This document shows, in pieces, positions 1-59,033 of a stretch of 64,000 nt of DNA (within the stretch, counting starts at the first letter, position 1; each line of letters begins with the position of its first letter). The notes below the pieces were generated by a model. The model was not told the DNA's origin. It did not search any database and saw nothing but the letters and a program-made list of their open reading frames with translations. The position numbers and the translations under genes are program-made. The stretch comes from a virus, in IMG/VR virus record IMGVR_UViG_3300025834_000005; one strand, 5' to 3'.

Positions 1-449
1 AATCACAACGTGGCATGTAAGATTGCAGCAGGTAGCTTGAGTGGTATATAATTCGATTCTAAAGGGAATCACAAATAAGCTTCAAAAGTATGATAATGAC
101 ATTATAGTGGTATATAGTTCAACACCAAAGGGAATCAGAACATATAAACAACTGTTCTTTGAAATATTTAAAATCCAAAGGGAATTACAACCATTCGTGC
201 AACCTCAGCAAATATTGTAAATGGTATATAGTTCAACACCAAAGGGAATTACAACTCAATACGATTAGCATTCACATAATTGATCAGTGTTATATAGTTC
301 AATACCAAAGGGAATTACAACTCCATATAATCAACCAAATCTTTTAATTGATTATATAGTTCAACACCAAAGGGAATCACAACAACCCTCTTATACAGGT
401 CTTTATAGTACCAAATGGTATATATCTCAAATCCAAAGGGAATTATTAT
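1..449 (+). CRISPR. CRISPR-like array (36-nt repeats, ~30-nt spacers), truncated by window start; no cas gene in window
   Basis: Repeat 3' ends at 9,75,141,191,255,321,383,449 (periods 66,66,50,64,66,62,66). Consensus AGTGGTATATAGTTCAACACCAAAGGGAATCACAAC. Seven unique spacers. Copy ending at 191 is 5'-truncated; copy 414-449 is degenerate. Confidence 0.8.
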
Positions 450-488
450 CAAACATTTGGCACTATTTGATATTTAGTGTCAAATGTT

Positions 489-518
489 TGTAACCTTATT
501 AAATCATTTACGTATAAT
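489..518 (+). promoter_or_regulatory. phage promoter-like bipartite motif
   Basis: TGTAACC 489; TACGTATAAT 509; ATG 531. Confidence 0.7.
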
Positions 519-530
519 AAAGAAAAAACA

Positions 531-719
531 ATGGATATTATGGCTTACTTAACGATTTTCGCTTTTTGTATTGGGCTTTGTAACTTTAAGGAATGGCAAG
601 GTAGCCATTGGTCTACGGCTAAATGGTATGTGCCAACACTGGCTGGAATTGCTGTTGCGATAGCCATACTATCATGCATTAGTTTTTTGAAAGCAGTACT
701 TTATTTAATTTTTAATTAA
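531..719 (+). CDS. small membrane protein (2 predicted TM segments)
   Basis: Track ORF 477..719 trimmed to ATG 531 downstream of the promoter motif; hydrophobic stretches AYLTIFAFCIGL and LAGIAVAIAILSCISF. Confidence 0.6.
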   Translation: MDIMAYLTIFAFCIGLCNFKEWQGSHWSTAKWYVPTLAGIAVAIAILSCISFLKAVLYLIFN

Positions 720-721
720 AA

Positions 722-1015
722 ATGATCAGGCACTTTAAAACAAATTCACCTAAATTATTCTTATTATCACTGTTAGCTGTTTTCATTGCGACAGTATTTG
801 GAATCGTTGAGATTATATCGGCAGGTATCTTACTAACCTTTATATTATTACCATTACTAATTCTGCTTATTATCATCGCTTTCATATTTTTTATCGTGTT
901 AGTTGCTTTTATCATTATGTTACTCTTTGCTTTTAGATTAAAAAGAGACGGTAATAAAGCGTATATTAATCGAAAGCGTGGCAATGAGCGTGATTATAAA
1001 GAAGAAATGCTGTAA
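722..1015 (+). CDS. highly hydrophobic membrane protein
   Basis: ORF track; starts 2 nt after upstream stop; long Leu/Ile/Phe-rich TM stretches. Confidence 0.6.
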   Translation: MIRHFKTNSPKLFLLSLLAVFIATVFGIVEIISAGILLTFILLPLLILLIIIAFIFFIVLVAFIIMLLFAFRLKRDGNKAYINRKRGNERDYKEEML

Positions 1016-1040
1016 CCTTTTATAAGGAATTACGTATAAC
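1011..1040 (+). promoter_or_regulatory. phage promoter-like bipartite motif
   Basis: TGTAACC 1011 (overlaps stop of 722..1015); TACGTATAAC 1031; ATG 1056. Confidence 0.7.
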
Positions 1041-1055
1041 TAAGAAAAGCATATC

Positions 1056-1424
1056 ATGAAAAGAGAAAACGAGTTAGGAGCATCTAAATATTTTGCGAAT
1101 AAAGGTTTGAAAAGAACTAAATCAGCCCTTCCAAATATTATTTACAAGATTGAGATAACTCAATTAAAGTCAGATGCTAATGTGGCATACTTTGAGCCTT
1201 ATAAGTTTAAGGACTTAGGCTACATGGTTTTGTCATGGACAAACCAAAAGGCGGATTCATTCGGAGAATATTCATGGTACTGGCATGGTTTTATAACAAT
1301 CGATGAATTGAAGCGTTATATCGGTACGAATCAATATTCGAAATTTTGCCAAGGTAAAAGAGAATTCATTATTCAACGAAGAGTTGATGGAAATAATACA
1401 TACATTCAAGATTTAGCATTATGA
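1056..1424 (+). CDS. hypothetical protein
   Basis: ORF track; promoter motif upstream. Confidence 0.65.
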   Translation: MKRENELGASKYFANKGLKRTKSALPNIIYKIEITQLKSDANVAYFEPYKFKDLGYMVLSWTNQKADSFGEYSWYWHGFITIDELKRYIGTNQYSKFCQGKREFIIQRRVDGNNTYIQDLAL

Positions 1425-1648
1425 TGATTATATACTGTCCTAAATGTCACGAGCCAATTGGCGATACCAGTTTCGCATCAGGCTTTAAGGAGAATTTTTA
1501 CAAGGTTAATAAGCATGGACGTCCAGTTTGTGATCTTTGCGGTCACAACAAAGATCACCCAAGGTTGCGTTTTGCATTAGAAGCACTTGCACTCACTGCC
1601 GTATTGATCGGCGTTTCTATATTTTTTATATATTATTCAAAACCATAA
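1421..1648 (+). CDS. zinc-ribbon protein with C-terminal TM helix
   Basis: CPKCH...CDLCGH cysteine pairs; ATGA start/stop overlap with upstream gene. Confidence 0.65.
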   Translation: MMIIYCPKCHEPIGDTSFASGFKENFYKVNKHGRPVCDLCGHNKDHPRLRFALEALALTAVLIGVSIFFIYYSKP

Positions 1649-1650
1649 TT

Positions 1651-1857
1651 ATGGAATTTGTTTACAAATTGTTCAAATATAATTACACGTATGACGTGCA
1701 AGGTTCAACAGAGAAAGACACTGAATATGCTTTAATGCATGTGCCTAAAGACGCAAGCTTTAGCAACAATCGAAGCACGTTGATAAATGCAAGATATAAA
1801 AAGTATTCGCATGAAATTGATGTGTATAGCGTTGAAGATTTAACAATTCAATTTTAA
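1651..1857 (+). CDS. hypothetical protein
   Basis: Track ORF 1537..1857 trimmed to ATG 1651, 2 nt after upstream stop. Confidence 0.55.
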   Translation: MEFVYKLFKYNYTYDVQGSTEKDTEYALMHVPKDASFSNNRSTLINARYKKYSHEIDVYSVEDLTIQF

Positions 1858-1864
1858 TTAAAAC

Positions 1865-2104
1865 ATGGCAGAAACAAAAGAGATTACCAAACTATTCGTT
1901 GTCACAGACAGCGAAACATCTTTCGATAACATTGGTGATATCGATGGTGGAATGTTTAATGAGGTGTGGCTAAAAAGCTATGTCAAATTTCATGGCACGC
2001 ATCGTCTTATTGAAAAATTGGCGGAAATGCAAATGCAGGTACTGCAAATGAAATATGAGATCATTAATGAAAGTGATTCAAGTGTATGTGCTGCAAACAT
2101 TTAG
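1865..2104 (+). CDS. hypothetical protein
   Basis: ORF track; co-directional gene train. Confidence 0.6.
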   Translation: MAETKEITKLFVVTDSETSFDNIGDIDGGMFNEVWLKSYVKFHGTHRLIEKLAEMQMQVLQMKYEIINESDSSVCAANI

Positions 2105-2356
2105 TTAAAGCATATTCTTTATGGTGCTTAGATGATTGCTTTTATCAACAAAGCGTTGATACATATACCATATGTCATGGCATTTGGATGGTTAATGGCT
2201 TGCAGATTAAAGAAAATGGCTTAAAACTACACACTCTGACGTGTGTATCAACATCGCATAAAGACTTAAAAATTGGTGATACAAGATATTTAATCGAGAT
2301 ACATTTACTGTATTTTTGTCACCCTGTACAAATTATTCATTTACCAAAAATTCAAA

Positions 2357-2626
2357 ATGAAAACAGTAAAATTACTTGTAGCGTCCATTGATGTTAGTCT
2401 ATGGTTATTAAGAATTACATTGGATGACGGAACTAAGTATGAGGCTAATTCCAGTGATGCTAAATTGGTCGCAGATATTTTATCATGTGAAGACGATAAA
2501 ATAATTGTAAATGCTATCGTTGTCGCTATCAACTATGTGCTTGATCAAAATAATGTTGACTATCTATACGCTAATTTCACATGGAATAACCAACATGGCT
2601 ACACTTTTTATATTGAAGAGGTGTAA
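2357..2626 (+). CDS. hypothetical protein
   Basis: ORF track. Confidence 0.6.
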   Translation: MKTVKLLVASIDVSLWLLRITLDDGTKYEANSSDAKLVADILSCEDDKIIVNAIVVAINYVLDQNNVDYLYANFTWNNQHGYTFYIEEV

Positions 2627-2651
2627 CCTTTTCATTTAATCTACGTATAAA
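2622..2651 (+). promoter_or_regulatory. phage promoter-like bipartite motif
   Basis: TGTAACC 2622 (overlaps stop); TACGTATAAA 2642; ATG 2664. Confidence 0.7.
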
Positions 2652-2663
2652 GAAATAAACGTT

Positions 2664-3011
2664 ATGGCAAAAATGAAAACATTGGAGCAGTTGACAAAGA
2701 AGGAACTTATCGAACTGATCATAGAGATTAGACCAAAAGCAATGGCTTATGATCGCATATGTGAAATACTTGGTATCGAAAAGAACATACTGCATTACAT
2801 AAATGATTTAAAAGCTGAATTAGCCGATAAAAAAGCTAACGAAAAGCCTGTTGAAATGTCAATGGACGATAAAATTGATCAGGAATTGATTGAAATACCG
2901 ATACCTATAGGTGATTTTGTCATGGAACATGGTAATGGCGTCATGTTTACGGATGGTATGTATTACCATTTCGCTGAGGTTATTAAACTCTTAAGAGCCT
3001 ACGTATCGTGA
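2664..3011 (+). CDS. hypothetical protein
   Basis: ORF track; promoter motif upstream. Confidence 0.65.
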   Translation: MAKMKTLEQLTKKELIELIIEIRPKAMAYDRICEILGIEKNILHYINDLKAELADKKANEKPVEMSMDDKIDQELIEIPIPIGDFVMEHGNGVMFTDGMYYHFAEVIKLLRAYVS

Positions 3012-3126
3012 CATTAAACCCTATAGATAATTAAGTTATGTTAACAGAATATCAGCAAATGATCATTAAACAACTGCAATCAGTTGAGATAATTACACTC
3101 AGTATAAACACTAATTTAGGTAAAAA

Positions 3127-3540
3127 ATGGATGGCTTTATAGATTTATCATTATATAATCCTTTAAAAAATTTTTTAAGTAATTCATTACGTAATCAATG
3201 GCTGACTTTCGATCACATGGAAATATATGTTCGAAAAAGCTGGCGTAACTATTGGCATATCAGAACCGATTTAAGGCATCCGACATGTCTCGACATAGCT
3301 TCTGTTAAGGTTGAGGAAAGCTTTCAGCATACAGGAATTTTTAAAGAATTTCTTAAACATGCGGAAGCCATTAATACACTACCTCTTATAATGGTTGAGA
3401 ATGTTTATAATCCTGTCTTGCCAGAGTTCTTAAAATCAGTTGGGTATACTGAATTTGACAGTATAAGCTATGTTAAGTTTAATGATCATTGTAAAGAATA
3501 TGATGATTGGCAAGCTGTAATAGAATCATTAAAGAAATAA
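3127..3540 (+). CDS. hypothetical protein (weak GNAT-like C-terminal pattern)
   Basis: ORF track; HTGIFKEFLKHAE...VENVYNPVLPEFLKSVGY is only a loose acetyltransferase-like resemblance. Confidence 0.55.
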   Translation: MDGFIDLSLYNPLKNFLSNSLRNQWLTFDHMEIYVRKSWRNYWHIRTDLRHPTCLDIASVKVEESFQHTGIFKEFLKHAEAINTLPLIMVENVYNPVLPEFLKSVGYTEFDSISYVKFNDHCKEYDDWQAVIESLKK

Positions 3541-3549
3541 AAATACATA

Positions 3550-3580
3550 TTTTCACATAATGTCGTTTTTCACATAATGT
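3550..3580 (+). repeat. 14-nt direct repeat TTTTCACATAATGT x2
   Basis: Copies at 3550-3563 and 3567-3580, just upstream of the HNH endonuclease gene, which has no TGTAACC motif. Confidence 0.8.
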
Positions 3581-3606
3581 TTCTGTATTTATATGAAAAA
3601 TATTAT

Positions 3607-4332
3607 ATGAAAATAACAAAAGATATCGCATGTAAAATTATAAATTTATTTTATGACGGAAATGGTTACTATGAAATCGCTAATATTGTTGGCGTCAGCG
3701 ATAATACAATTTATAGATTCATCAAATCAAAGGGCTTAAAATCTATTGATAGATTGAAACGACATAAGTGCTCCTTCGACCTAAATGAAATTGGTAATAA
3801 GTATAATCGATTGACAATTGTTGGCACTGAGTATAGCGAAATGTATAAGACTTGGTGCGCAAAATGCATTTGCGACTGTGGACAGGAAACCATTGAGACG
3901 TTACGAAAATTAAAAAATGGCGAAAGAAAAACATGCGGAAATAAAAATTGTGAGCATCATACTGAATTAAAAAGAATTAATGGCACTTTGACCACCACAA
4001 CAGGATATGAAAATATTTTAGGTAGCTCATGGGCATCATGGCGATTAGGAGCAGAACGAAGAAAAATAGATTTTTTAGTCACAATTGAAGAGGCTTGGGA
4101 TATTTATGTAAAACAAAATGGTAAATGTGCATTAACTGGCATAACATTAAAATTCAGAAAGGGTGAAAATAGAATACAAACAGCGTCATTAGATAGAATA
4201 GATTCATCGAAACATTATACTATTGATAATATACAGTGGGTTCATAAAGAAATTAATCGAATGAAAGGTTGTTTGCCCGAAGACAAATTTTTAGAATTTT
4301 GTAAAAATGTTGTAACATGGAACAAGAGTTGA
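3607..4332 (+). CDS. HNH homing endonuclease with N-terminal HTH
   Basis: C-terminal LDRIDSSKHYTIDNIQWVHKEINRMKG (HNH_3-like); N-terminal HTH YYEIANIVGVSDNTIYRFIK; start taken at second ATG. Confidence 0.75.
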   Translation: MKITKDIACKIINLFYDGNGYYEIANIVGVSDNTIYRFIKSKGLKSIDRLKRHKCSFDLNEIGNKYNRLTIVGTEYSEMYKTWCAKCICDCGQETIETLRKLKNGERKTCGNKNCEHHTELKRINGTLTTTTGYENILGSSWASWRLGAERRKIDFLVTIEEAWDIYVKQNGKCALTGITLKFRKGENRIQTASLDRIDSSKHYTIDNIQWVHKEINRMKGCLPEDKFLEFCKNVVTWNKS

Positions 4333-5345
4333 CAAGAGACGAATTTAGGGAAGGCGTTTTTAAACGTGACGATCATAAGTGTGTTATATGCGGTAATTTA
4401 GCTAAAGATGCCCATCACATAATTGAAAGAAGATTATTCAATCCTTCCAGCTCAGGATATTTCATTGATAATGGAGCATCTTTATGCTTTAATCACCATA
4501 TTGAGGCTGAGCAAACTACGCTTAGTTGCGATGAAATTAGATTAAAAGCTGGCATAACAACGATAGTAATTCCAGAGCATTTCTATGGAGATCAGACTTA
4601 CGATAAGTGGGGTAACATAATACTACCAACCGAGCAACGTATTAAGGGAGAGTTGTTTTATGATGAATCTGTTCAAAAGATTTTAAAACAAGGCAACGTC
4701 TTAGACCTGTTTCAAAAATATGTTAAATACCAACGTACCTATCATTTGCCTTGGAGTAATCTGTTAAAGGATGATCGAATCATTAAAGACGATAGCAATT
4801 TCACAGGCAAGAGGGTTATAGCTACGTTGAAAATGGACGGTGAAAACACTACCATGTACAATGACTACATTCATGCGAGGTCATTGGAAAATGCATCGCA
4901 TGAAACAAGGAATTGGGTTAAGGGCTTATGGTCGCAGATCGGCTACATGCTTGATGACAACATGCGAATTTGCGGCGAAAATTTATACGCACAACATTCT
5001 GTTAAATATGATAGTCTTCCATCGTATTTTATGATGTTCTCAATGTGGAGTGACAATACATGCATGTGCTGGGATGAAACTATTGAATACTCAAAGATAT
5101 TAGGGCTGGAAATGGTTCCAATTATCTATGATGGTATCTATGATAAGGATAAAATCATCGCAGCATTCGAGCCTTACAGACTTGCTAATGAGGGCTATGT
5201 AATCAGAATTGCCGATGAATTTAATTACATTGATTTCAGAAGATCAATTGCTAAGTTCGTCAGACCTGAATTTAGGCAAGCTGTTAACAATTCACATGGT
5301 CACTGGATTTCAAAAAAGATTGAAGCAAATGGCTTAAAGTTGTAA
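4317..5345 (+). CDS. HNH-like domain fused to ATP-dependent RNA ligase (Rnl2/PF09414-like)
   Basis: N-terminus HKCVICG...AHHIIERR...NGASLCFNHH (HNH). Ligase motif I KMDGEN, motif IV EGYVIR, motif V AKFVR. Confidence 0.7.
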   Translation: MEQELTRDEFREGVFKRDDHKCVICGNLAKDAHHIIERRLFNPSSSGYFIDNGASLCFNHHIEAEQTTLSCDEIRLKAGITTIVIPEHFYGDQTYDKWGNIILPTEQRIKGELFYDESVQKILKQGNVLDLFQKYVKYQRTYHLPWSNLLKDDRIIKDDSNFTGKRVIATLKMDGENTTMYNDYIHARSLENASHETRNWVKGLWSQIGYMLDDNMRICGENLYAQHSVKYDSLPSYFMMFSMWSDNTCMCWDETIEYSKILGLEMVPIIYDGIYDKDKIIAAFEPYRLANEGYVIRIADEFNYIDFRRSIAKFVRPEFRQAVNNSHGHWISKKIEANGLKL

Positions 5346-5370
5346 CCTTTTATATTGTTTTACGTATAAC
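5341..5370 (+). promoter_or_regulatory. phage promoter-like bipartite motif
   Basis: TGTAACC 5341; TACGTATAAC 5361; ATG 5384. Confidence 0.7.
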
Positions 5371-5383
5371 TAAGAAAAAAGCT

Positions 5384-5689
5384 ATGAAAAAATTACCAGA
5401 AGTCGGAGACAAAATCTATATCGCAGGTCAGATGTATGTGTATAGAGGCGAGGATGACGTCGCAGGGGGATTGGCAACAATTATCGAGGTCATAGTTAGT
5501 GATACTCTACCAGTTGGTCACATCAATAGAGTATTCATTAAACTTAAAGAAGTCCCATATAAGTCATATAATTGGGACATGCTTGAAGAAAAGCAAGAAA
5601 AGCTTGCAAAGGATTATGCTGGTAAAATAGCACATCCAGACCCTGATAACAGACCTGAGTTCAATGACGATAACGAGGGGTGGCATTAA
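5384..5689 (+). CDS. hypothetical protein
   Basis: ORF track; promoter motif upstream. Confidence 0.65.
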   Translation: MKKLPEVGDKIYIAGQMYVYRGEDDVAGGLATIIEVIVSDTLPVGHINRVFIKLKEVPYKSYNWDMLEEKQEKLAKDYAGKIAHPDPDNRPEFNDDNEGWH

Positions 5690-5759
5690 TAAGCTATTGC
5701 CATTGTAGACAGTATGATGCTTTTCAGATATCTTTAGTATTTATTATAAAATTAAAGAT

Positions 5760-6521
5760 ATGCGAGAAGAAATAATTCACGACTACGTGATTAATTTCAT
5801 GAGTACAACAGATTTAGCCACTAAATATAAATTAAATAGGGTAACAATTCAAAGATATTTAATTAAAGGCGGCGTAAGTCTGAGAAGAATTACCCCAAAG
5901 ACAAAGGTAAATCACTATTATTTTTCGAAATATAGTAAAGAAAATTGTTATTGGGCTGGCTTTATCTTAGCGGATGGTTATATCAGAACAAATAAAAGGT
6001 TTACATTATCCATAAAACTTCAAAAGGGCGACATAGATCATCTTGAAAAACTAAAAAATGATATTAAATTTGAAGGTAAAATAATTGAGAGACCCTTATA
6101 TGTAAATATTGACATATCATCAACCCAAATAGTTAAAGACCTTCAAGAAAATTTTGGCATTCACACGAAAAAATCACTTACCTGTGAAATATCGAGTAAA
6201 ATACCTCAAAAGTATCTTAAAGACTTTATTCGTGGGTATTTTGATGGCGATGGCTGTATTACGTATACAACCGTTGATACGATTAGCTTCGTGGGAACTG
6301 AAAAGACTGTAAATTTTATCAAAAATTTCATATATGAAACTGCTCGCATAAAATTAAGAAGTAAAAATTTACCCGATACTGTAGTAAATGGTAATATTTG
6401 TTGCATTTACTACAGCGGCAAAACAGCATATAGTTGCTTAAAATATCTATATGAAAATTCAACAACATATTTAAGTCGTAAATTTAAATTATATCAAGAG
6501 CTAATTAATAAATATCAATAA
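5760..6521 (+). CDS. LAGLIDADG homing endonuclease
   Basis: Two LAGLIDADG motifs, AGFILADGY and RGYFDGDGC; N-terminal HTH. Confidence 0.85.
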   Translation: MREEIIHDYVINFMSTTDLATKYKLNRVTIQRYLIKGGVSLRRITPKTKVNHYYFSKYSKENCYWAGFILADGYIRTNKRFTLSIKLQKGDIDHLEKLKNDIKFEGKIIERPLYVNIDISSTQIVKDLQENFGIHTKKSLTCEISSKIPQKYLKDFIRGYFDGDGCITYTTVDTISFVGTEKTVNFIKNFIYETARIKLRSKNLPDTVVNGNICCIYYSGKTAYSCLKYLYENSTTYLSRKFKLYQELINKYQ

Positions 6522-6527
6522 AAAAAT

Positions 6528-6557
6528 TGTAACATTTTACAAATTACATCGTATAAT
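6528..6557 (+). promoter_or_regulatory. phage promoter-like motif (variant)
   Basis: TGTAACA 6528; ATCGTATAAT 6548; ATG 6573. Confidence 0.6.
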
Positions 6558-6572
6558 ATAAAAATAAACACA

Positions 6573-7328
6573 ATGGGAAATAAAAAAGATTCATTAGGCG
6601 ATAGGATAAAATCCAACTATGAAAACAGAACAAGGTATCTATTGCCGAGACGCACATACACCATGATACGTCTCGATGGAAAGTCCTTCCATTCTTATAC
6701 AAAAGGACTTACAAGACCATTTGACATTAAATTGGTCAATGATATGGATGAAACCACCATTTATCTTTGTAAAAATATTCAAGGAGCAAAGATGGCTTTC
6801 GTTCAATCGGATGAAATTACCATTTTACTTACAGACTTTGATAGTCTAACTTCTGATGCATGGTTTGATGGTAATATTCAAAAAATCGCCAGTATATCAG
6901 CAAGTATGGCTACGGCTAAATTCAATGAATTGAGACCGAATAAGATTGCATTATTCGATAGTAGAGTGTTTACCTTACCAACTGCTACCGAGGTCGCAAA
7001 TGCTTTCATTTGGCGTCAAATGGACACTGTACGCAACAGTATTAGCTCCGTTGCTCAGTCTCTTTACAGTCACAAGGAATTGATGAATAAGAACACGAAT
7101 CAGATGCAAGAACTATGCTTTCAAAAAGGTGTAAACTGGAATGATTACGATCTTAAATTAAAAAACGGTAGGATTATCATGAAAGTTGAAGAAACTCTGG
7201 AAACGCCGTTTAAAGGTGCTGAGTTTGCTCAATCCAATTATACACGTAGTAAATGGAAAAGTGTTGGTGCGCCAACCTTTACGGCTGATCATTCGTTTCT
7301 CGATGCATTGATTCCGATTAACGATTAA
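6573..7328 (+). CDS. Thg1-like protein (tRNA-His guanylyltransferase family, 3'-5' nucleotidyltransferase)
   Basis: MIRLDGKSFHSYTKG...; FVQSDEITILL; size and motif order typical of Thg1/TLP. Confidence 0.8.
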   Translation: MGNKKDSLGDRIKSNYENRTRYLLPRRTYTMIRLDGKSFHSYTKGLTRPFDIKLVNDMDETTIYLCKNIQGAKMAFVQSDEITILLTDFDSLTSDAWFDGNIQKIASISASMATAKFNELRPNKIALFDSRVFTLPTATEVANAFIWRQMDTVRNSISSVAQSLYSHKELMNKNTNQMQELCFQKGVNWNDYDLKLKNGRIIMKVEETLETPFKGAEFAQSNYTRSKWKSVGAPTFTADHSFLDALIPIND

Positions 7329-7359
7329 GTCTGTAACAAATATATACTAAATTCGTTAC

Positions 7360-7402
7360 AAATCTTTGTCGCAAATTTAGTATATATTTGCGACAAAGAT
7401 TT
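7360..7402 (+). terminator. 17-bp perfect hairpin; its loop and flanks are complementary to an upstream 14-mer
   Basis: AAATCTTTGTCGCAAAT 7360-7376 pairs with ATTTGCGACAAAGATTT 7386-7402. 7339-7352 is the exact complement of 7375-7388. Confidence 0.65.
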
Positions 7403-7464
7403 CTTATACTATACTGTTTTATAATTATTTACCAATCAAATAATGCCAGAAGGGGTTAGCAATT

Positions 7465-7704
7465 ATGACATGCGATACAATTGAGAGATATGAAAACGGA
7501 ATGCCTGTCTATAAAAAGAAAAGAGCATTTAATACACAGGATGAAGCTATTACGGAAGCTAAGAAAGTAAACTCTGGTGATCATGTGATTCATAAGGTGG
7601 TCGCTTACAGATGCAACTACTGTTTTAAGTTTCACTTAGGCAGAAATGGTCATGAGTTGACAGACAAAGATCGTGATAAATTTAAAAAAGCAATAAAGAA
7701 ATAA
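7465..7704 (+). CDS. hypothetical protein
   Basis: ORF track. Confidence 0.6.
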   Translation: MTCDTIERYENGMPVYKKKRAFNTQDEAITEAKKVNSGDHVIHKVVAYRCNYCFKFHLGRNGHELTDKDRDKFKKAIKK

Positions 7705-7706
7705 TT

Positions 7707-7976
7707 ATGTCAATCGAGAAGATTAAAGAAGATATCATTGCCATGAGCAAAGAATTCGATGAAAAAGATGGATGTGTAACATGTGAAATTTCCATACAAT
7801 ATCAAGAGATTGACGAATTTTCTGAATTTGTAATTAAAAATACTAATATCAAATTAGGCAAATGGATTTTTTATGAATGCGAAACATGTACCAAACTTTA
7901 TGGTAAGGATTATATTCACGCAAGCATAGAATCAGCTGATAGTATCAAATGGATTGACAAATCAAAATTAATTTAA
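7707..7976 (+). CDS. hypothetical protein
   Basis: ORF track; 2 nt after upstream stop. Confidence 0.6.
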   Translation: MSIEKIKEDIIAMSKEFDEKDGCVTCEISIQYQEIDEFSEFVIKNTNIKLGKWIFYECETCTKLYGKDYIHASIESADSIKWIDKSKLI

Positions 7977-7978
7977 TC

Positions 7979-8008
7979 TGTAACCTTTTGATCTTATTTA
8001 CGTATAAC
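7979..8008 (+). promoter_or_regulatory. phage promoter-like bipartite motif
   Basis: TGTAACC 7979; TACGTATAAC 7999; ATG 8024. Confidence 0.7.
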
Positions 8009-8023
8009 TGATAAAATTATCAT

Positions 8024-8491
8024 ATGAAAGTAAAAGAGCCTTTATCATCAGAATTTCAATTAGGTTATTATGTCGGAGAATTTATTGTTCATCGATTTCT
8101 ACCCACTATTGATGTTGAGTGCCAAGGGGCAACAACACAAGTTATCCATGTGTCTGATAATGATAAAGCTGAATATGAAAGGCTTAGCGATGCGCATCAC
8201 CAATCATATGATCGTAATAACCCAAAGGCAAACGCAATTGAGTGGGAAGCTTATCGTAAATGCTCTCGTGAGTTGCAGGAAAAGTATATGCCTGAAACTC
8301 TATTATGCTACTTAAATCCTCTTACCATTACAAATATGGATGAATTTAAGTTAGGTTTATGGGATTCATTATGGAATTCAGATGTTTGCTCTTATGACAT
8401 ACAGCCTGAGAACATAAAAATTTATGATGACATAACAGCAACAGGTCACATATTTTTCACAATTATTGAATTTAAATTAAGAACAGAATAA
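8024..8491 (+). CDS. hypothetical protein
   Basis: ORF track; promoter motif upstream. Confidence 0.65.
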   Translation: MKVKEPLSSEFQLGYYVGEFIVHRFLPTIDVECQGATTQVIHVSDNDKAEYERLSDAHHQSYDRNNPKANAIEWEAYRKCSRELQEKYMPETLLCYLNPLTITNMDEFKLGLWDSLWNSDVCSYDIQPENIKIYDDITATGHIFFTIIEFKLRTE

Positions 8492-8492
8492 G

Positions 8493-8693
8493 ATGGAAGA
8501 TAAGAAATTTAAAGAAACGACTACAATTACTCTCAAAGAATACATAGATTTAAGGTATTTCAGGAGAAACATCGATGGAAAATTTACATTAAAAGTAATG
8601 AAACGTCAGTATGGTGTAAAAAGACTCCAATACATGTCAACAGAAGATGCCGTTTTGGAAATATCTGAACAGAAAGTTAACCAACGAGAATGA
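8493..8693 (+). CDS. hypothetical protein
   Basis: ORF track. Confidence 0.55.
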   Translation: MEDKKFKETTTITLKEYIDLRYFRRNIDGKFTLKVMKRQYGVKRLQYMSTEDAVLEISEQKVNQRE

Positions 8694-14582: not shown

Positions 14583-15716
14583 ATGAAAAGAATAAGTATT
14601 CAACCACGTAAGGATTATATTCAGAAACTGGAAGCTATTTCCTTTAATTTCCACACCATTGATGGAGTATATTGGGATGAATCAGCGTACTACGCATTCA
14701 ATATGCGTCAGGTAGAGCAGATCGAAAAAGCTACCAATGATCTATTCGAAATGATGCTCACAGCCGTTCAGTATGTAATTGATAAAAAGCTTTATAATAG
14801 GTTAAAAATCGATAACAAGATGATTGCCTTAATTGAGCAGTCATGGGAAGACGAACACCCAAGCGTGTATGGTCGATTTGATTTCGGATATGATGGAATC
14901 GGCACTCCTAAGATGTTAGAGTTTAATGCTGATACGCCAACATCGTTGTATGAGGGTTCTGTCGTACAATGGCACTGGATGCAAGAAATGTTTAAAGACA
15001 AAGATCAGTTTAATTCAATCCATGAAAAGCTCATAGCATATTGGGAAAGCTGTTTGAGTTACTTTGCTGATGAAACTGTTTATTTCACATCTGCCGACAC
15101 TATCGAAGATTTTACAACTGTTGAATATCTTCGAGACACTGCCTCACAAGCTGGACTTGATACAAAATTCATTGACATTAAAGACATTGGGTGGGATAAT
15201 AACAATCTCGAATTCATTGATATGGACGGTAATAAGATTGTAAACATCTTTAAACTATATCCTTGGGAATGGCTTATCGATGAAGAGTTTGGCAAGAATA
15301 TTTTAATCGAAAGAGAAAATACAATATGGTTTGAGCCAGCTTGGAAAGCAATTTTAAGTAACAAAGGTATTCTACCTATCTTATGGCAATTGTTTCCAAA
15401 TCATGAAAACCTTTTACCAGCCTATTTCGACTCATGTCACGAAATGAAAGATTATGTTAAGAAACCAATCTACTCTCGTGAAGGTGCAAACGTTACAATT
15501 TATCGTAACGGCGAAATCGTAGAATCATCAGATGGCGAATACGGCGAAGACGGCTATATCTATCAGGAATTCTATCAATTACCGTGTTTTAATGAGAACT
15601 ACCCAATCATAGGTAGTTGGGTTATCGGTGGCGAAAGTGCTGGAATGGGAATCAGAGAATGTAAAACTTTAATCACTGATAACATGAGCCGATTTGTACC
15701 ACACATCATAATTTAA
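14583..15716 (+). CDS. glutathionylspermidine synthase-like ATP-grasp amidoligase (YgiC/YjfC family)
   Basis: YGRFDFGYDG...MLEFNADTPTSLYE and C-terminal KPIYSREGANV...GGESAGMGIRE are typical of GSP_synth. Confidence 0.8.
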   Translation: MKRISIQPRKDYIQKLEAISFNFHTIDGVYWDESAYYAFNMRQVEQIEKATNDLFEMMLTAVQYVIDKKLYNRLKIDNKMIALIEQSWEDEHPSVYGRFDFGYDGIGTPKMLEFNADTPTSLYEGSVVQWHWMQEMFKDKDQFNSIHEKLIAYWESCLSYFADETVYFTSADTIEDFTTVEYLRDTASQAGLDTKFIDIKDIGWDNNNLEFIDMDGNKIVNIFKLYPWEWLIDEEFGKNILIERENTIWFEPAWKAILSNKGILPILWQLFPNHENLLPAYFDSCHEMKDYVKKPIYSREGANVTIYRNGEIVESSDGEYGEDGYIYQEFYQLPCFNENYPIIGSWVIGGESAGMGIRECKTLITDNMSRFVPHIII

Positions 15717-22290: not shown

Positions 22291-22381
22291 GTCGAAGTAG
22301 CTCAGTTGGTTTAGAGCACCAGCATCGGTCTACGTTTACGTAACGTGTAGGGGGTCAGGGGTTCGAGTCCCTTTTTCGACA
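22291..22381 (+). tRNA. tRNA gene with a 16-nt insert in the anticodon-stem 5' strand
   Basis: Acceptor GTCGAAG/TTTCGAC, with canonical D and T arms. Deleting 22321-22336 gives stem CCTAC/GTAGG and loop GTAACGT (anticodon AAC). The unspliced alternative has a TTACGTA loop (ACG). Confidence 0.55.
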
Positions 22382-22735: not shown

Positions 22736-22777
22736 ACCTTCCATGCCTCTCCACGATGCACACTTGGAAGGTTTTTT
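22736..22777 (+). terminator. hairpin + T-run closing the tRNA-like cluster
   Basis: ACCTTCCA 22736-22743 pairs with TGGAAGGT 22765-22772, followed by TTTTT. Confidence 0.5.
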
Positions 22778-28135: not shown

Positions 28136-30403
28136 ATGATTCTTGATTTAACACTTAATAGCGACGAAATTAGCTCAACTGACGATAGCTCAACCACTGA
28201 AATGGGAGTTAGTGCCAATGCTGCTCAAATCTTCTTTAGAATGTTTACCAAGAACACGTACTCCAATCCAATTGGTAGTGTTGTTAGGGAAATTACAAGT
28301 AACTGTTTCGATAGTCACATCGAAGCGAATGTTACAAAGCCTATTTTAATTAAAAGAGGCGTCGATGCTCACACAAAAATCGATTACATTTCATTCATCG
28401 ACTTTGGTATCGGAATGTCGCCTGAACGAATTAAAAAGGTTTACAATGTTTTGTTTACAAGCACAAAGCAAAGTGATAATACGCAAATCGGAGGCTTCGG
28501 ATTAGGCTCAAAATCACCACTGGCTTATTACCGTCAAGTTGGTGATAGAAGTAGTGATCAGGATAACAGCTTTTTTGTTACAACTATTTTCGATCATAAA
28601 AAATACACATACTGTATTTACGAAGGCCCTAAAACACCACTTATCAACTTACTCCATGTTGAAGATTGCACAGAGGGTAACGGTACAGAAGTTCGCATAC
28701 CTGTCTTAAGTAAAGATATGTATCGCTTTAAAACAGAGATCGTAAAACAATTATATTACTTTGACAGCATTGTTTTTGAAGGGTTTGATGATTACAGTGG
28801 AATCACCAATGAATTCAACATTGTTCGTGGTACAAGCTTTCTATACAGAGGTACATCATACTCAGATTATATGCATATCTGCTTAGGTAAAGTAGCATAT
28901 CCTATCAATTACGATACTCTTGGTCTTAATTCATCTGAATACAGATTCCCTGTTGCTATTAAGCTTGAAATTGGCGATATCAATGTTGTGACGTCACGTG
29001 AGGCAATTGATTATTCTGAGAACACTATTAAGCTTATTATTAAGAAGCTTAAAGAAGCCAAAGCTGAAATAGTTGCGCTTATTGCAAAACAATATGATAC
29101 TGTTGTATCGCTTCCAGACTATTTTAATTTTAAAAAAGAGTTTGGTATGCTATACTTTCCTAACGATATTCAAATGAACATTTCAAACATGTGTAAATTC
29201 AAGGATATTGAATTACCTAATTTTAAGTATTCAGATGTTCCAGTAATTAATGACGTTAAGATGTTTAATAATTTATATACTATCGGGGTTTATGGAAAAA
29301 AAGAATCACGTCACAGTTGGAAAGATAGCATTTTTGATGGTAGTTACGATAAATTAGACCTTGGCAATGTTTTCTTAGTTGATAGTTTCTACAAACGTAA
29401 AGTTTTAAAGCATGCTTATTTAAAAAGTATGAATAGTAGAAATTATTTTGTAAGTCCAAATCCATTGGCTAAGTCAGCGCATATCCTTGCAGAAATCTTT
29501 GATGTTAAACGTAGCGAATTAATGACTGTTAATAAGGATGACGCAAGAGACATAATGTTTACGCCACTATACATGACAATATGTGAAATGCTTGACGAAT
29601 ATCGTGAAATTGTTGAGTCTAAAATATCAACGTATGATGATATTATTGTTCCAAGTACATTTGTGAGAGAGAAATCTTATACAGCAGACAAAGAAGATAT
29701 TACAATCACAATGGTATACAGATATAATAATGTTGAGAAGTATACTTTCAAGTTCACACAACTCCTTAAATTCAAAGGCACAATTATTTACGGTGATTTT
29801 GATAAAGTACTTGATTTAAAAAATGCTTGCGATACTTATGAGGATTTATTTTCACCAAGATCAGAAGCTGTAAGAAAATACAGTCGACATGAAGGTTTTT
29901 ATTCTGATAATAGCAAGGCAAGGGTCATGTTCTTAATGGTATCTAAAGCCAACATGAGAAGAATTAAGCAGCTTAAGAATATCTGTCATGTGGATGATAT
30001 CTATAATCGTTTCTTTTATCGTAAGAAAGAACTTGTGGAACGCAGTTTCTTTGTAGGTAAAATTGCTAACAGGTATAATGAACTGGACTCATTTTACAGA
30101 TCGGAAGATTTTAAACAAATCTTTCCAGAAATAGGTAAAGATTTGACAGAATTAACCGATTATCTTCGTGTTAACAATGTTAAGCAACTTTTCAAGACTA
30201 CTCAAACACTTAAACTTGAAAGGTACTTCAAGATTGATAAAGATAAAGTACCTGTTGGGCATGAAAAGCATTTTAAGACTATTAATAATATAGACGATAT
30301 CTGCGCAAAATACAAGCATGTATTTAAATTTATCAATATCCCTTATAATTATGGTAGCAATCAGGAATTCACCGACTTCATGAAAACTGTAATTAAACTG
30401 TAA
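28136..30403 (+). CDS. rIIA: rIIA-like protein with N-terminal GHKL ATPase fold
   Basis: Bergerat motifs REITSNCFDS, DFGIGMS, GGFGLGSKS; 755 aa; directly upstream of the rIIB homolog. Confidence 0.75.
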   Translation: MILDLTLNSDEISSTDDSSTTEMGVSANAAQIFFRMFTKNTYSNPIGSVVREITSNCFDSHIEANVTKPILIKRGVDAHTKIDYISFIDFGIGMSPERIKKVYNVLFTSTKQSDNTQIGGFGLGSKSPLAYYRQVGDRSSDQDNSFFVTTIFDHKKYTYCIYEGPKTPLINLLHVEDCTEGNGTEVRIPVLSKDMYRFKTEIVKQLYYFDSIVFEGFDDYSGITNEFNIVRGTSFLYRGTSYSDYMHICLGKVAYPINYDTLGLNSSEYRFPVAIKLEIGDINVVTSREAIDYSENTIKLIIKKLKEAKAEIVALIAKQYDTVVSLPDYFNFKKEFGMLYFPNDIQMNISNMCKFKDIELPNFKYSDVPVINDVKMFNNLYTIGVYGKKESRHSWKDSIFDGSYDKLDLGNVFLVDSFYKRKVLKHAYLKSMNSRNYFVSPNPLAKSAHILAEIFDVKRSELMTVNKDDARDIMFTPLYMTICEMLDEYREIVESKISTYDDIIVPSTFVREKSYTADKEDITITMVYRYNNVEKYTFKFTQLLKFKGTIIYGDFDKVLDLKNACDTYEDLFSPRSEAVRKYSRHEGFYSDNSKARVMFLMVSKANMRRIKQLKNICHVDDIYNRFFYRKKELVERSFFVGKIANRYNELDSFYRSEDFKQIFPEIGKDLTELTDYLRVNNVKQLFKTTQTLKLERYFKIDKDKVPVGHEKHFKTINNIDDICAKYKHVFKFINIPYNYGSNQEFTDFMKTVIKL

Positions 30404-30420
30404 ATAAATATCAGTTATTT

Positions 30421-30450
30421 TGTAACCTTTTATATTTTGTAACGTATAAC
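30421..30450 (+). promoter_or_regulatory. phage promoter-like bipartite motif
   Basis: TGTAACC 30421; AACGTATAAC 30441; ATG 30474. Confidence 0.7.
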
Positions 30451-30473
30451 AAGTAAATTAATACAATTTAAGT

Positions 30474-31796
30474 ATGAACATAATTAACGCAATTAAAATC
30501 GGAAACATTATCAATCTATCGATTAACGGTATTTTGGAAAAGAAGATTTGTGCTACCAGCGAAGAAGCTAAAAGCATTTTCGAAATGGTTTTAAAAACCA
30601 AGGCTGACCCGACAGACCTGAACATTAAGAATCTTTTTTTATTTCTTAATAACAAGGTTCGGGAAGTCATTATTGCTGGCTTTGAATGCGATCTTGTTGA
30701 TGGAAATATTTATCTTCAAGGCTTTAACACGCCAGTGCCTGATGCTATTCTTGATGTGGTTAAGGATTACAACGAGAACAATTTTCCATATGAAACCATC
30801 ATCAATTTCTGGAAACTTTTGATGATCAATCCAGATGAAATAGTTCGCAAGTCATTGTTTGATTTTATCAGCAAGTTCAATTTGGTTTTATCCAATTACG
30901 GCTATTTCTTAGCTTATAAAGCTGTCAAGCTTTATGTTGATCCTAAAAGTTCAACCCCTGTTGCTGCTCCTGTTAAGAAAAAGGCAAAAAAGGGCAAAGA
31001 AACCACAGTGAAGCCAGCATCGAAGAGTGGATTAACAGTTGATGAACAGTTCATTGCCGCCGAATACAACAAGGTGAAAAATACATGGAAATGTGCACCA
31101 AAGAACTATACTGTTTATGTCACCAATGCTGACGGAAAGCCACATGCAACCGAAACAAAGACATTCGCTAAATGGAACTTAGCCGAGAAGAATGTTACCG
31201 AACTTGGGTGTCTTAAGGATATGTTTGAGTTAGCACCTTACACGAGCAACGCAACCATTACTGTGGCAGAGCAAGAAGTCGAGGTTGTGAAACAAGCAGA
31301 TGAAATACAAGTCGACAATGTACCAGTGTATACTGACAAGCACACTGGCAAAATGAGGATTATCCTTGGAAAGCCTGTGCAAATGGAACGTAAAGACTGT
31401 AACGGTGATCCTAAACAGGATTGTAGCTATGGATTGCACGTTGGAAGTACAAAGTACGTTGAAAGCTTCGCAAGTTCAGATGATACAATTCTTCTATGCC
31501 TTGTGAATCCAGCACATGTTGTCGCTGTACCTAATTCAGACACGAGCAAAATGAGAGTATCTGAGTATTTTCCGATTAGTATCGTAAGTCGTACAGACTC
31601 AAAGATTAACGCCATACAACAGTCATACTTCGAAAGCGATTATATCGCTTACGAACAGGGTGAGCTTAATAAAATGGCAGATAAAATTCGTGCTAATCAG
31701 TATCCTATTGCCGTAGCAAAAACAACAAAAGCAGAAGATCGTCCTTTGGCTGACTTGCTTAAAATTATCGAATCACGCTTAATTGATCTTAAATAA
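30474..31796 (+). CDS. rIIB: rIIB-like protein
   Basis: GYFLAYKAVK and DCSYGLHVGSTKYV...VNPAHVVAVP...KMRVSEY match T4 rIIB segments as I recall them (GYFYAWKVV; CSRGLHVCSKSYI...HPRDVVSIP...KMRTCQY). Confidence 0.8.
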   Translation: MNIINAIKIGNIINLSINGILEKKICATSEEAKSIFEMVLKTKADPTDLNIKNLFLFLNNKVREVIIAGFECDLVDGNIYLQGFNTPVPDAILDVVKDYNENNFPYETIINFWKLLMINPDEIVRKSLFDFISKFNLVLSNYGYFLAYKAVKLYVDPKSSTPVAAPVKKKAKKGKETTVKPASKSGLTVDEQFIAAEYNKVKNTWKCAPKNYTVYVTNADGKPHATETKTFAKWNLAEKNVTELGCLKDMFELAPYTSNATITVAEQEVEVVKQADEIQVDNVPVYTDKHTGKMRIILGKPVQMERKDCNGDPKQDCSYGLHVGSTKYVESFASSDDTILLCLVNPAHVVAVPNSDTSKMRVSEYFPISIVSRTDSKINAIQQSYFESDYIAYEQGELNKMADKIRANQYPIAVAKTTKAEDRPLADLLKIIESRLIDLK

Positions 31797-37771: not shown

Positions 37772-38755
37772 TTATCCCCTAAAATAGCTATCCCCTGCAA
37801 TTTGTTTTGCCTTGTCTTCGCTGCTGGTCTTAATATATCTAAAAAAGCTTTTCTCCGTTGTGTGTCCCGTTAGTGCCATAATCTCATATGTTCCCATCCT
37901 TGCGGTCTGGTACATGTTCGTGGCTGCACTACGTCGAGCTGTATGACTTGAAATAAGTTCCCATGCCTGCTTAGTCTCATAAATCAATTTACCGCCTTTC
38001 GTATAATTAAATTTCACATCCTCGTTAAATCCAATTAGTTTACAAATCTTTTTTATGCTTCTATTAAAGTATTGGATTGAAACTCCCGAATACAAATTTC
38101 CATTATATTTATTAAGAATTTCACGCACATAATCATGGATCGGAATAGTAATCCTTGTTTTTGTTTTCTTGACTATTTTTATGATAAAATCCTTTGTGAA
38201 ATTGTCCGTAGTCAAGGTGGAATAATCAGAAAAGCGTAATGCTGTCAAACATCCAACCACAAACAAATCTCTTATTTTCTCCTGCTTTTTAGTCAATCCC
38301 ATATAGTAATAAATTCTCGTGATTTTATTCATGCTCAGAAAAATCGAGAAAGTGTTTTCAAGCTTAATGCTAACGTCATCATAAGATGGATCAACTGCAT
38401 AGCCGTATTTTGCCGCTTTAGCCGCCATCGATTTAACAAGCGACAGCAAATTTGAGATGTAGTTTTGACGAAGATCATTCCCCTCAAGGTAAGTCACAAA
38501 ATCTTCAAGAAACTCCTCTCCAACAGAGTTCGTATAGATGTTGGCGTTGTATTGTTTCGAAAATGCGTTGAGATGTAGGATAAGGGTATTGTAGTTCTTC
38601 ACATACATTTCACTCATTCTATTTGATTTCCGCAGTGCAGTCACTGCAACAAAATCCGCAAAAAGTACGCCAGTTTTGGGTTCATTTTGTATTAAACGGT
38701 TAATGTAGTCCCGTTTGCCCGATAGGTCTTTTTCCACTTTTAAAGCTACGCTCAT
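37772..38755 (-). CDS. tyrosine recombinase / integrase (Bacteroidota-type)
   Basis: ALRFSD (Arg I), SHTARRS (H-x-x-R), GHTTEKSFFRYI (His/Tyr); N-terminal SAM-like domain. Confidence 0.85.
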   Translation of the reverse strand: MSVALKVEKDLSGKRDYINRLIQNEPKTGVLFADFVAVTALRKSNRMSEMYVKNYNTLILHLNAFSKQYNANIYTNSVGEEFLEDFVTYLEGNDLRQNYISNLLSLVKSMAAKAAKYGYAVDPSYDDVSIKLENTFSIFLSMNKITRIYYYMGLTKKQEKIRDLFVVGCLTALRFSDYSTLTTDNFTKDFIIKIVKKTKTRITIPIHDYVREILNKYNGNLYSGVSIQYFNRSIKKICKLIGFNEDVKFNYTKGGKLIYETKQAWELISSHTARRSAATNMYQTARMGTYEIMALTGHTTEKSFFRYIKTSSEDKAKQIAGDSYFRG

Positions 38756-38873
38756 TTCGTAATTTCATTTATAATAATAAAGCCATAATAAGTGTAGAGC
38801 GGCTTACGAAAACCGTTAGTAATGTATCTAAAGCACTTATGGCTTCATTATATATTAATATATAACTCCGTAA

Positions 38874-38881
38874 TTTCTCGC
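38874..38881 (-). promoter_or_regulatory. possible Bacteroidota -7 box TAACTTTG upstream of the integrase
   Basis: Minus-strand TAACTTTG matches the TAnnTTTG consensus; no clear -33 TTTG. Confidence 0.3.
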
Positions 38882-39063
38882 TGCAAAGTTACGGATTTAA
38901 TTTGAAATGATAATAAAAACATATTTTTTTTTCAAACGCACCTCGTTGTTCTCCAATATAAGCTATTAGCATTGGGTTAACTCAACATTTATCAAGAATT
39001 CGTGATAGATCCTGACCCGTCACAAATTAATGTAACAAAGTTCATGTAGTCTCTAAATGTGAA

Positions 39064-58909: not shown

Positions 58910-59033
58910 AGGGCGTTAGCTCAGTTGGTAGAGCGCGAAATTCTCTTTTACACCTTTTCCCTTTATTGTGGCGTTCGTAAAAGTTACTTCATTCTTAATG
59001 ACGAGGTCGGTGGTTCGAGTCCATCATGCCCTA
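58910..59033 (+). tRNA. tRNA-Lys(CUU)-like gene interrupted by a 51-nt insert in the anticodon stem
   Basis: Acceptor AGGGCGT/ATGCCCT. D arm GCTC-AGTTGGTA-GAGC. T arm GGTGG-TTCGAGT-CCATC. Variable region AGGTC. Deleting 58938-58988 gives stem CGTCA/TGACG and loop TTCTTAA. Confidence 0.65.

Follow-up and report, generated by a model that had tools for sequence, protein, structure and literature searches.

The first 449 nucleotides of a 64,000-nt stretch of viral DNA (the window; IMG/VR virus record IMGVR_UViG_3300025834_000005) are occupied by direct repeats separated by spacers, the layout of a CRISPR array, and in longer contigs that hold the same sequence this array follows a set of cas genes on the same strand. 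In the window, the 3' ends of the repeats are at positions 9, 75, 141, 191, 255, 321, 383, and 449, as determined by reading of the sequence and with two repeat finders. A 36-nt repeat and a 30-nt spacer make up the unit, successive periods being 66, 66, 50, 64, 66, 62, and 66 nt, and each of the window spacers is unique. The core sequence CCAAAGGGAATYACAAC, when up to three mismatches are allowed, is found seven times, always between positions 59 and 449 and nowhere in the remainder of the 64 kb; the chance expectation is 0.40, and a count of seven was reached in none of 100 shuffles.

The edge of the window cuts through the array. When the 122-aa protein encoded at 1056–1424 was looked up in public assemblies, it was found in 13 contigs, ten of them in the 0.2–1 Mb class, and the two metagenomic contigs that hold the window sequence are 328,334 and 328,374 bp in length, the longer being Ga0123338_10000007 (JGI 3300009686). 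The phage is present in samples JGI 3300009686, 3300025140, and 3300050033, ENA ERZ27245608 and ERZ27245765, and SRR5829599. The window has no mismatches to contigs L002 and L003 over 11.4 and 10.7 kb, respectively; L002 coordinates are those of the window plus 8945, position 1 of the window being L002 8946. The array begins 224 nt 5' of the window with four identical 36-nt repeats, AGTGGTATATAATTCGATTCTAAAGGGAATCACAAC (R1–R4), and the spacers S1–S3, and as a whole is made up of eleven 36-nt repeats with 10 unique spacers between them, most of which are 30 nt long, so that the window holds its leader-distal (old) two-thirds. Upstream, all on the + strand, are found in order a phage promoter motif, cas3 (L002 3638–5914; 758 aa), a cas7fv-like gene (5982–7052; 356 aa), a cas5fv-like gene (7042–7875; 277 aa), cas6 (7879–8613; 244 aa), and a 107-nt leader between cas6 and R1; the cas genes, leader, R1–R3, S1–S3, and the start of R4 together fall in the span L002 3638–8954. 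The array is thus accompanied by cognate cas genes and has the polarity relative to a leader that is characteristic of CRISPR arrays. An earlier note on this DNA, based on the window only, described the array as an orphan and proposed that the contig be extended upstream for a leader and cas genes. The extension located both, and because the contigs reveal cas genes and perfect repeats directly beyond the window edge, the array is not an orphan. The accompanying statement that none of the genes in the 64 kb after the array looks like a cas gene agrees with a scan of the larger open reading frames (ORFs): no Cas protein was found among the 18 window ORFs of ≥250 aa, and neither Cas1 nor Cas2 among these and two of 185–198 aa, smaller, Cas2-sized ORFs not being covered. 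It should be recognized that an odd, orphan-looking array at the edge of a window needs to be extended before it is read; here, 9 kb of upstream sequence turned an anomaly into a normal locus.

The repeats deteriorate with distance from the leader. Counted outward from cas6, the copies have 0, 0, 0, 0, 1, 6, 12, 7, 6, 10, and 10 mismatches relative to the first repeat, and because these numbers climb from 0 at the leader to 10 at the far end, only the decayed leader-distal end lies in the window. The claim that every repeat copy is different is thus correct for the seven complete copies in the window, which are all pairwise non-identical, but not for the array as a whole, in which R1–R4 are identical; the degeneracy reported for the window copies is reflected in the rise of the mismatch counts to 10–12 away from the leader. 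From the window edge onward, every element being on the + strand, positions 1–9 contain the final 9 nt of R4, the fourth of the identical leader-proximal repeats, whose remaining 27 nt are upstream, and S4 (10–39; 30 nt, 50% GC) follows. This spacer is present in L002 and L003 but is missing, together with one repeat, from contigs L001 and L004 (0.18% divergent), a loss that recombination between adjacent repeats would produce. R5 (40–75) is only one base off (final C>A) and is separated by the 30-nt S5 (76–105) from R6 (106–141), which has six mismatches, ends in CAGAAC, and is the first copy of a second repeat version, variant B (TATATAGTTCAACACCAAAGGGAAT...).

The unit after R6, with a period of 50 nt, was correctly described in the earlier note as retaining only the 3' ∼20 nt of the repeat: it is composed of an ordinary 30-nt spacer, S6 (ATATAAACAACTGTTCTTTGAAATATTTAA; 142–171), and a repeat, R7, reduced to its 3' 20 nt (172–191). 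A conserved leader-like element after R6 (14 nt + 36 nt) was also considered for this region and was dropped, a 30-nt spacer followed by a 5'-truncated repeat being the better description. Beyond R7 are S7 (192–219; 28 nt on the assumption of a 36-nt repeat, giving the 64-nt unit), R8 (220–255; variant B, seven mismatches), S8 (256–285; 30 nt), R9 (286–321; variant B, six mismatches), S9 (322–347; 26 nt on the same assumption, giving the 62-nt unit), R10 (348–383; variant B, degenerate at its 5' end and with 10 mismatches), the last spacer, S10 (384–413; 30 nt), and the terminal repeat, R11 (414–449), with 10 mismatches and a 3' end that now reads TTATTAT. The 64- and 62-nt units, too, look like minor losses from the 5' end of the repeat. 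Directly 3' of R11 is a 16-bp inverted repeat (450–490, + strand; 94% complementary, 9-nt loop), a candidate hairpin for the end of the transcript, although it has no T-run and the terminator scan reported nothing at this location.

Folding of the canonical repeat predicts a 6-bp hairpin, GAUUCU-AAAG-GGAAUC (−5.4 kcal/mol), that ends 5 nt before the 3' end of the repeat. In five of the seven systems that were folded (the present phage and the related loci L006, L008, L027, and L089, which are described below), the canonical repeat has a predicted hairpin at this position; it is weaker in L086 and essentially absent from L007. Its U-G pairs are possible only in RNA from the + strand, which supports transcription from the cas6 side. 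Variant B, TATATAGTTCAA(C/T)ACCAAAGGGAAT, is shared by R6, R8, R9, and R10; in this version, the 5' strand of the hairpin is gone, and predicted folding does not exceed that of shuffled sequences. The best-conserved positions of the repeats within arrays are 22–33, AAAGGGAATCAC, presumed to be the region of Cas6 interaction and of the 5' handle, and R6–R10 retain the core AAAGGGAAT(C/T)ACAAC, in which the presumed handle and the stem's 3' strand reside.

Comparisons of the four proteins with profile and structure libraries relate them to type I effectors. Cas3 matches the PADLOC profile Cas3fv (1.5e-51), TIGR01596 cas3_HD (6e-17), and PDB entry 9g44_A (4.5e-27). It is a stand-alone HD nuclease-helicase, with the HD domain at 12–192 followed by a DExH helicase and with no Cas2 domain, and aligns only to positions 317–868 of the 951-position Cas3fv profile. 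Alignment of six homologues revealed no variation in the HD residues or in the Walker A (GFGKT), DExH (FDEYHE), SAT, and QxxGRxxR motifs, and the nuclease-helicase therefore looks to be active as judged from its sequence. The 356-aa protein matches NCBIfam Cas7fv (1.2e-22) and the solved Shewanella Cas7fv (PDB 5o6u_C, 3e-11), and has the precomputed Pfam assignment “Cas7fv-like”. The 277-aa protein has no sequence or profile match in Pfam, NCBIfam, PADLOC, or the PDB. An AlphaFold2 model was made of a homologue 88% identical to it (predicted local distance difference test score, 91.7), and in a Foldseek search its sole notable match was chain F of the I-Fv Cascade, 5o6u_F (probability 0.99, E 2.7e-3, TM score 0.36–0.42). 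We take this chain, partly from its length (336 residues), to be Cas5fv, and the model suggests that the 277-aa protein is Cas5fv-like. Cas6 is assigned by TIGR01877 (4e-17, over the cut-off), PADLOC Cas6b (2.5e-26), and PF01881 Cas_Cas6_C; it has no match to Cas6f in the profile libraries. The promoter motif and the array are separated by just four genes, none of them for a large (Cas8) or small (Cas11) subunit. Cas1, Cas2, and Cas4 are not encoded by any of the 10 complete genes called in the 8.9 kb upstream.

The same arrangement recurs in other elements. The Cas7-like protein has 190 relatives, all metagenomic, and several are encoded on contigs of 120–364 kb. In six loci that were fetched, L006 (136 kb), L007 (310 kb), L008 (364 kb), L088, L089, and L086, of whose contigs four are 136–364 kb in length, cas3, cas7, the cas5-like gene, and cas6 precede an array, the period of which is about 66 nt in five and 57–64 nt in L088, and no cas1 came to light in the stretches inspected; in a seventh, L027, a contig of a Bacteroidetes metagenome-assembled genome (MAG), the same cas genes are present and cas3 is placed after the array. 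A gradient of repeat decay like that of the present array, with identical repeats on the leader side and mismatches that increase with distance from it, is found in six of the seven related arrays (L006, L007, L008, L027, L086, and L089), the four-repeat array of L088 being too short to show one. Repeat heterogeneity is highest in the subclade of the present phage, with 13 distinct copies among 17 in L086 and 22 among 25 in L089. The closest relative is L086, in which cas6 is 87% identical in DNA sequence, the leader is 90% identical, and the Cas5-like protein is 88% identical. The only spacer common to its array and the present one is S6 (29 of 30 positions), which in both is preceded by a repeat ending in CAGAAC and followed by the equally truncated repeat; positions 142–191 of the window correspond to L086 3415–3463, with a single difference at spacer position 6. 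In L086, the canonical repeat of the present phage is found in the middle of the array and a newer version at the leader end. These blocks of repeat versions, together with near-complete spacer turnover at ∼10% divergence, indicate that the arrays are dynamic. The source of the turnover would be acquisition, recombination between arrays, or both; the replacement of spacers on both sides of S6 is not explained by addition at the leader end alone. Two features of the related arrays may be added. In L006, the array after cas6 is supplemented by a further, short array that uses the same repeat and lies between cas3 and cas7 (7421–7806), and the 25-repeat array of L089 (5723–6133) contains near-duplicate spacers (e.g. 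...CATATTCCATAATGGATTTTTCTTTT twice), which points to internal duplication or to recombination within arrays.

Taken with the gene content and order, these features make it very probable that positions 1–449 are the leader-distal part of the CRISPR array of a type I-Fv-like system encoded by a ∼328-kb jumbo phage. In the mechanism that we propose, the array would be transcribed on the + strand from the cas6 side, and Cas6 would bind the small hairpin in the 3' half of the repeat and cleave there, probably leaving an 8-nt 5' handle, AUCACAAC. The CRISPR RNA (crRNA) would then assemble with Cas7, Cas5, and Cas6 into a minimal Cascade with neither a large nor a small subunit, as in type I-Fv, and Cas3 would subsequently be recruited and would degrade matching DNA. 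The likeliest targets would be phages that co-infect the cell or mobile elements of other kinds, with the host as a further possibility, a role in DNA targeting of competitors or host that is modeled on the systems of huge phages and of phage ICP1 (PMC7162821, PMC10161043). New units would join the array at the leader end while old units decay, and such addition and decay would explain why the four copies just outside the window are perfect whereas those within it are varied, 5'-shortened, and mostly hairpin-less. The part in the window is probably the least functional stretch of the array. The impression that the array is a poor fit to a maintained one is not borne out by the extended locus, since the gradient of decay is the normal one and cognate cas genes are adjacent.

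Several observations weigh against this assignment. The 356-aa protein scores 80.7 bits on NCBIfam Cas7fv, for which the cut-off is 200, and appears from its sequence to be kin to Cas7fv and not an equivalog, and the assignment of the Cas5fv-like protein hangs on one modest fold match. The absence of cas1, cas2, and cas4 applies to the ∼73 kb inspected, or roughly 25% of the 328 kb in the genome. No copy of the phage promoter motif is present in the leader, scans of the leader and array for σ70 promoters and intrinsic terminators gave nothing beyond the expectation from shuffles, and a 13-bp stem followed by TTTT, located just 3' of cas6 and before the array and conserved in L086 with a different loop, could stop read-through into the array; the mode of array transcription is therefore inferred. 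Finally, no protospacer was found for any spacer tested in GenBank phages, IMG/VR, one metagenome collection, or the window.

The search for spacer targets that the earlier note had recommended, against phage sequences and the phage's own genome, thus found none. In a blastn comparison of the whole array with GenBank phages only chance-level matches were obtained (E ≥ 0.8), and searches of IMG/VR with S1–S5 and the core of S6, with every sixth base wild, gave nothing. S1 gave no match in the metagenome collection, a weak test in that the collection does not contain the phage's own contig. The one match of S2 in the same collection, in a high-GC bacterial contig, was rejected because none of the seven spacer bases beyond the 23-nt pattern agrees, as chance predicts. 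Comparison of the spacers of the present and the seven related arrays with the window and all of the fetched phage loci revealed no cross- or self-targeting. The G+C contents of S1, S2, and S4 (43–50%) are above that of the phage (about 33%), which hints at foreign targets, although it is no proof of them. S2 (L002 8823–8852) encodes LIDEADAIA in its second frame, which resembles a Walker B/DEAD-box segment, so that this spacer may be directed at another element's conserved gene for an ATPase or helicase.

Other interpretations of the array differ in how far they depart from an active type I-Fv-like system. Compatible with it, and plausible at somewhat less than even probability, is the view that the old part of the array is a dead relic, in which S5–S10 with R6–R11 yield no working crRNAs and S1–S4 alone are functional. 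The variant B repeats, which lack the 5' strand of the hairpin and fold like shuffles, are in accord with this, as are the reduction of R7 to 20 nt, the 10 mismatches in each of R10 and R11, the loss of the CACAAC end from R11, and the units of 50, 62, and 64 nt, which indicate small deletions. However, the core with the presumed handle persists in R6–R10, and the absence of a hairpin need not be disabling, since some Cas6 enzymes process unstructured repeats. Moreover, variant B is common to four copies and appears to be a version that was once propagated, unlike the products of random decay, and S6 with its truncated repeat has been kept in two phages in which all other spacers have been replaced.

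The remaining alternatives deny the array a system of its own. The earlier note favored either a decaying hijacked mini-array or repeat mimics that act as RNA anti-CRISPRs, and neither agrees with the extended locus. A hijacked array with crRNAs that serve a host Cas13b (type VI-B) or Cas9 (type II-C) would account for the last 9 nt of the repeat (AATCACAAC) and the 36 + 30 geometry, which are common to arrays linked to Cas13b and to Cas9/Cas1, and huge phages with host-like repeats and no effector are on record (PMC7162821). Nevertheless, it is very improbable: the array is linked to a full type I interference cassette, including its own Cas6 107 nt upstream, that is conserved with the array in all of the relatives, identity to VI-B and II-C repeats is limited to 20–22 of 36 positions and is concentrated at the 3' end, and the 5' GTTG end typical of VI-B is missing from the phage repeat. 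We consider it extremely improbable that the repeats are mimics soaking up host Cas proteins, even though the degenerate copies retain the core alone and the 3' end is like those of VI-B and II-C repeats. Regular, unique 30-nt spacers, decay from leader to trailer, and adjacent cognate cas genes mark a true array, and the core resembles the canonical repeats of the phage clade (identical 3' runs of 14–20 nt) more closely than it does host repeats (9 nt). A tandem repeat outside the CRISPR context (iterons for replication, an array of protein-binding sites, or a series of promoters, for example) could be suggested by the TATATAAT/TATATAGT stretch in each repeat and by a few σ70-like matches in the array, though these (10, versus 7.3 ± 2.5 in shuffles) are not in excess. 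The probability of this is negligible: the 36 + 30 layout, the unique spacers, the adjacent Cas6, the turnover of spacers with retention of repeats, and the confinement of the motif to the array within 64 kb all oppose it, and the upstream cas operon effectively refutes it.

The resemblance of the repeat to those of types VI-B and II-C, which had left the subtype unassigned in the earlier note, was examined by scanning one genome per species for paired ...AATCACAAC repeat ends. The 3' end does resemble VI-B repeats, and the reverse complement II-C repeats, but the likeness is restricted to the last 9 nt and the 36 + 30 spacing. Arrays of this geometry with AATCACAAC ends adjoin Cas13b in Bergeyella, Sphingobacterium, and Capnocytophaga, and Cas9 with Cas1 in gammaproteobacterial MAGs (II-C arrays with this end include L041 and L030); the same scan also returned the I-Fv-like cassette of L027. 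The phage repeat is identical to the VI-B and II-C repeats at 20–22 of 36 positions (20 for the Bergeyella/Capnocytophaga VI-B repeat), the only continuous identity being in AATCACAAC, whereas it shares identical 3' runs of 9–20 nt with the repeats of the related phages and drops to the cellular level, 9 nt, in L007 only. The subtype is neither of the two, the effector genes being of type I-Fv-like character. Type VI-B loci have Cas13b and 36-nt GTTG...CAAC repeats, whereas the present locus has no Cas13b and a repeat that starts with AGTGG; type II-C loci have Cas9, Cas1, and Cas2 beside the array, and none of these is present here. RNA anti-CRISPRs and solitary repeat units, similarly, stand without cognate cas genes. 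Thus, the similarity of the repeats does not fix the subtype and may instead reflect a shared type of spacer integrase.

Among characterized systems, the closest is type I-F2 (I-Fv) of Shewanella putrefaciens CN-32 (PDB 5o6u, 5o7h, and 9g44; PMC4937334), which has the same order, cas3-cas7-cas5-cas6-array, and whose proteins are the best, and essentially the sole, solved relatives of the present Cas7 and Cas3. Both systems lack the large and small subunits. However, the S. putrefaciens system, which is on a proteobacterial chromosome and not on jumbo phages, uses Cas6f/Csy4, whereas the present Cas6 is of the general Cas6/Cas6b family, and it has a Cas2-3 fusion and Cas1 in the locus, whereas the present Cas3 is unfused and no cas1 is nearby. 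I-F loci have 28-nt repeats and ∼32-nt spacers, as compared with 36 and 30 nt here. The locus therefore departs from I-F2 in Cas6f, the Cas2-3 fusion, Cas1, and the 28-nt repeats, yet keeps the I-F2 core. Those described from huge phages (CRISPR-Cas; Al-Shayeb et al. 2020, PMC7162821) are similar in being carried by genomes of >200 kb, in combining interference genes with a compact array, and, as far as the ∼73 kb inspected is concerned, in having no Cas1, Cas2, or Cas4. Degeneration at the old end of the array is noted in the same work, as are huge phages that have host-like repeats and no effector; the systems highlighted there are type I-C variants, type II, and type V (Cas-phi), and not the present type of cassette. 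Vibrio phage ICP1 (Seed et al. 2013; PMC10161043) likewise carries a type I-F-related system with a compact Cascade that has no Cas11, and deploys it offensively against an anti-phage island of its host. In contrast with the present system, which lacks Cas8 and, as far as inspected, adaptation genes, ICP1 has Cas1, Cas2-3, Csy1–4 (with Cas8f), 28-nt repeats, and its own spacer acquisition. Phage-borne CRISPR-Cas without adaptation genes is therefore already known, and Pfam already has a “Cas7fv-like” family. No description of the I-Fv-like four-gene cassette was found in the searchable literature, but the 2022 catalogue of virus-encoded systems (Cell) was outside the search and may contain an earlier one.

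The Bacteroidota VI-B and II-C arrays (Hoikkala et al. 2021, PMC8092290) have the same 36-nt repeats and 30-nt spacers and a leader-distal repeat end, GTTGT(G), that corresponds to CACAAC on the + strand here, but their effectors are Cas13b or Cas9 and not Cascade/Cas3. In Flavobacterium columnare, a VI-B array with 36-nt repeats and no cas1 gains spacers through the Cas1-Cas2 of the II-C system, and the repeats of the two share the leader-distal GTTGT end (PMC8092290). By analogy, we offer the hypothesis that the phage borrows a host integrase. In its full form this would have the jumbo-phage clade represent a distinct, uncharacterized type I subtype (I-Fv-like Cas7 and Cas5, a Cas6b-like RNase, stand-alone Cas3, and 36-nt repeats) that has no integrase of its own and whose arrays are updated by host Cas1-Cas2 of the II-C type, a proposal that is speculative and, as a whole, rather unlikely. 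It is hinted at by the 36 + 30 geometry and the leader-distal GTTGTG end that the phage repeats share with Bacteroidota II-C and VI-B arrays, by the blocks of repeat variants with the newest at the leader, which are expected if new repeats copy the first one, and by the sharing of one spacer only between two phages with 87–90% identical cas6 and leader. If the type I-Fv-like assignment is correct, the locus represents a compact four-gene DNA-targeting CRISPR system that combines parts of subtypes I-F2 and I-B and is found repeatedly in jumbo phages, many in number, whose hosts have low GC and are probably Bacteroidota. The locus could reveal the minimal size of Cascade and what phages target by CRISPR, and it prompts one to ask by what means arrays are turned over when they have no Cas1-Cas2 of their own.

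The element that carries the locus is identified as a phage by the adjacent rIIA and rIIB genes at 28136–31796, an RNA ligase of a PHROG phage family, the many small co-oriented genes, and 32 co-oriented promoter motifs. The motif, TGTAAC-N14-TACGTATAA (also TGTAAC(CTTTT)-N-TACGTATAA), has 32 sites in the window between 489 and 61691, all on the + strand and before genes, compared with 0.31 expected; in agreement with the earlier note, the first copy is found shortly after the array (489–517, + strand). The motif probably serves as promoter for a class of transcription specific to the phage. A perfect copy is located at L002 3591–3619, 19 nt upstream of the start of cas3, and is predicted to drive the cas operon. 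Megablast of window positions 1–6000 against GenBank phages gave no match, and the repeat pattern was not matched in the IMG/VR collection searched, indicating that the phage and its close relatives are not in that collection.

Some other features of the phage genome may be recorded. A gene with a Ro60/TROVE domain is present at 57068–58501, and ∼400 nt further on is a match to the Rfam tRNA model (58910–59033; 42.6 bits) with no ARAGORN tRNA call; this RNA looks like a Y-RNA-like (YrlA-type) partner of Ro60 with a tRNA-like module. A second Rfam tRNA match without an ARAGORN call is at 22291–22381 (45 bits, 91 nt), and an abiF RNA motif (40.5 bits, above gathering) is found 350 nt downstream of it at 22737–22772. 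An RNA ligase, a Thg1-like tRNA-His guanylyltransferase, and RtcB form an RNA repair set at 4317–5345, 6573–7328, and 48834–50159, which, with Ro60, suggests counter-defense against host nucleases that act on tRNA or RNA. The sole block of minus-strand genes (37772–41918) coincides with a reversal of GC skew and encodes a tyrosine integrase (327 aa) and proteins of 571 and 380 aa that have no Pfam or PHROG match; it may be a mobile element inserted in the phage. Auxiliary metabolic genes at 14583–15716 and 45546–46709 encode a glutathionylspermidine synthase (Pfam, 4.9e-149) and an adenylosuccinate synthetase-like protein.

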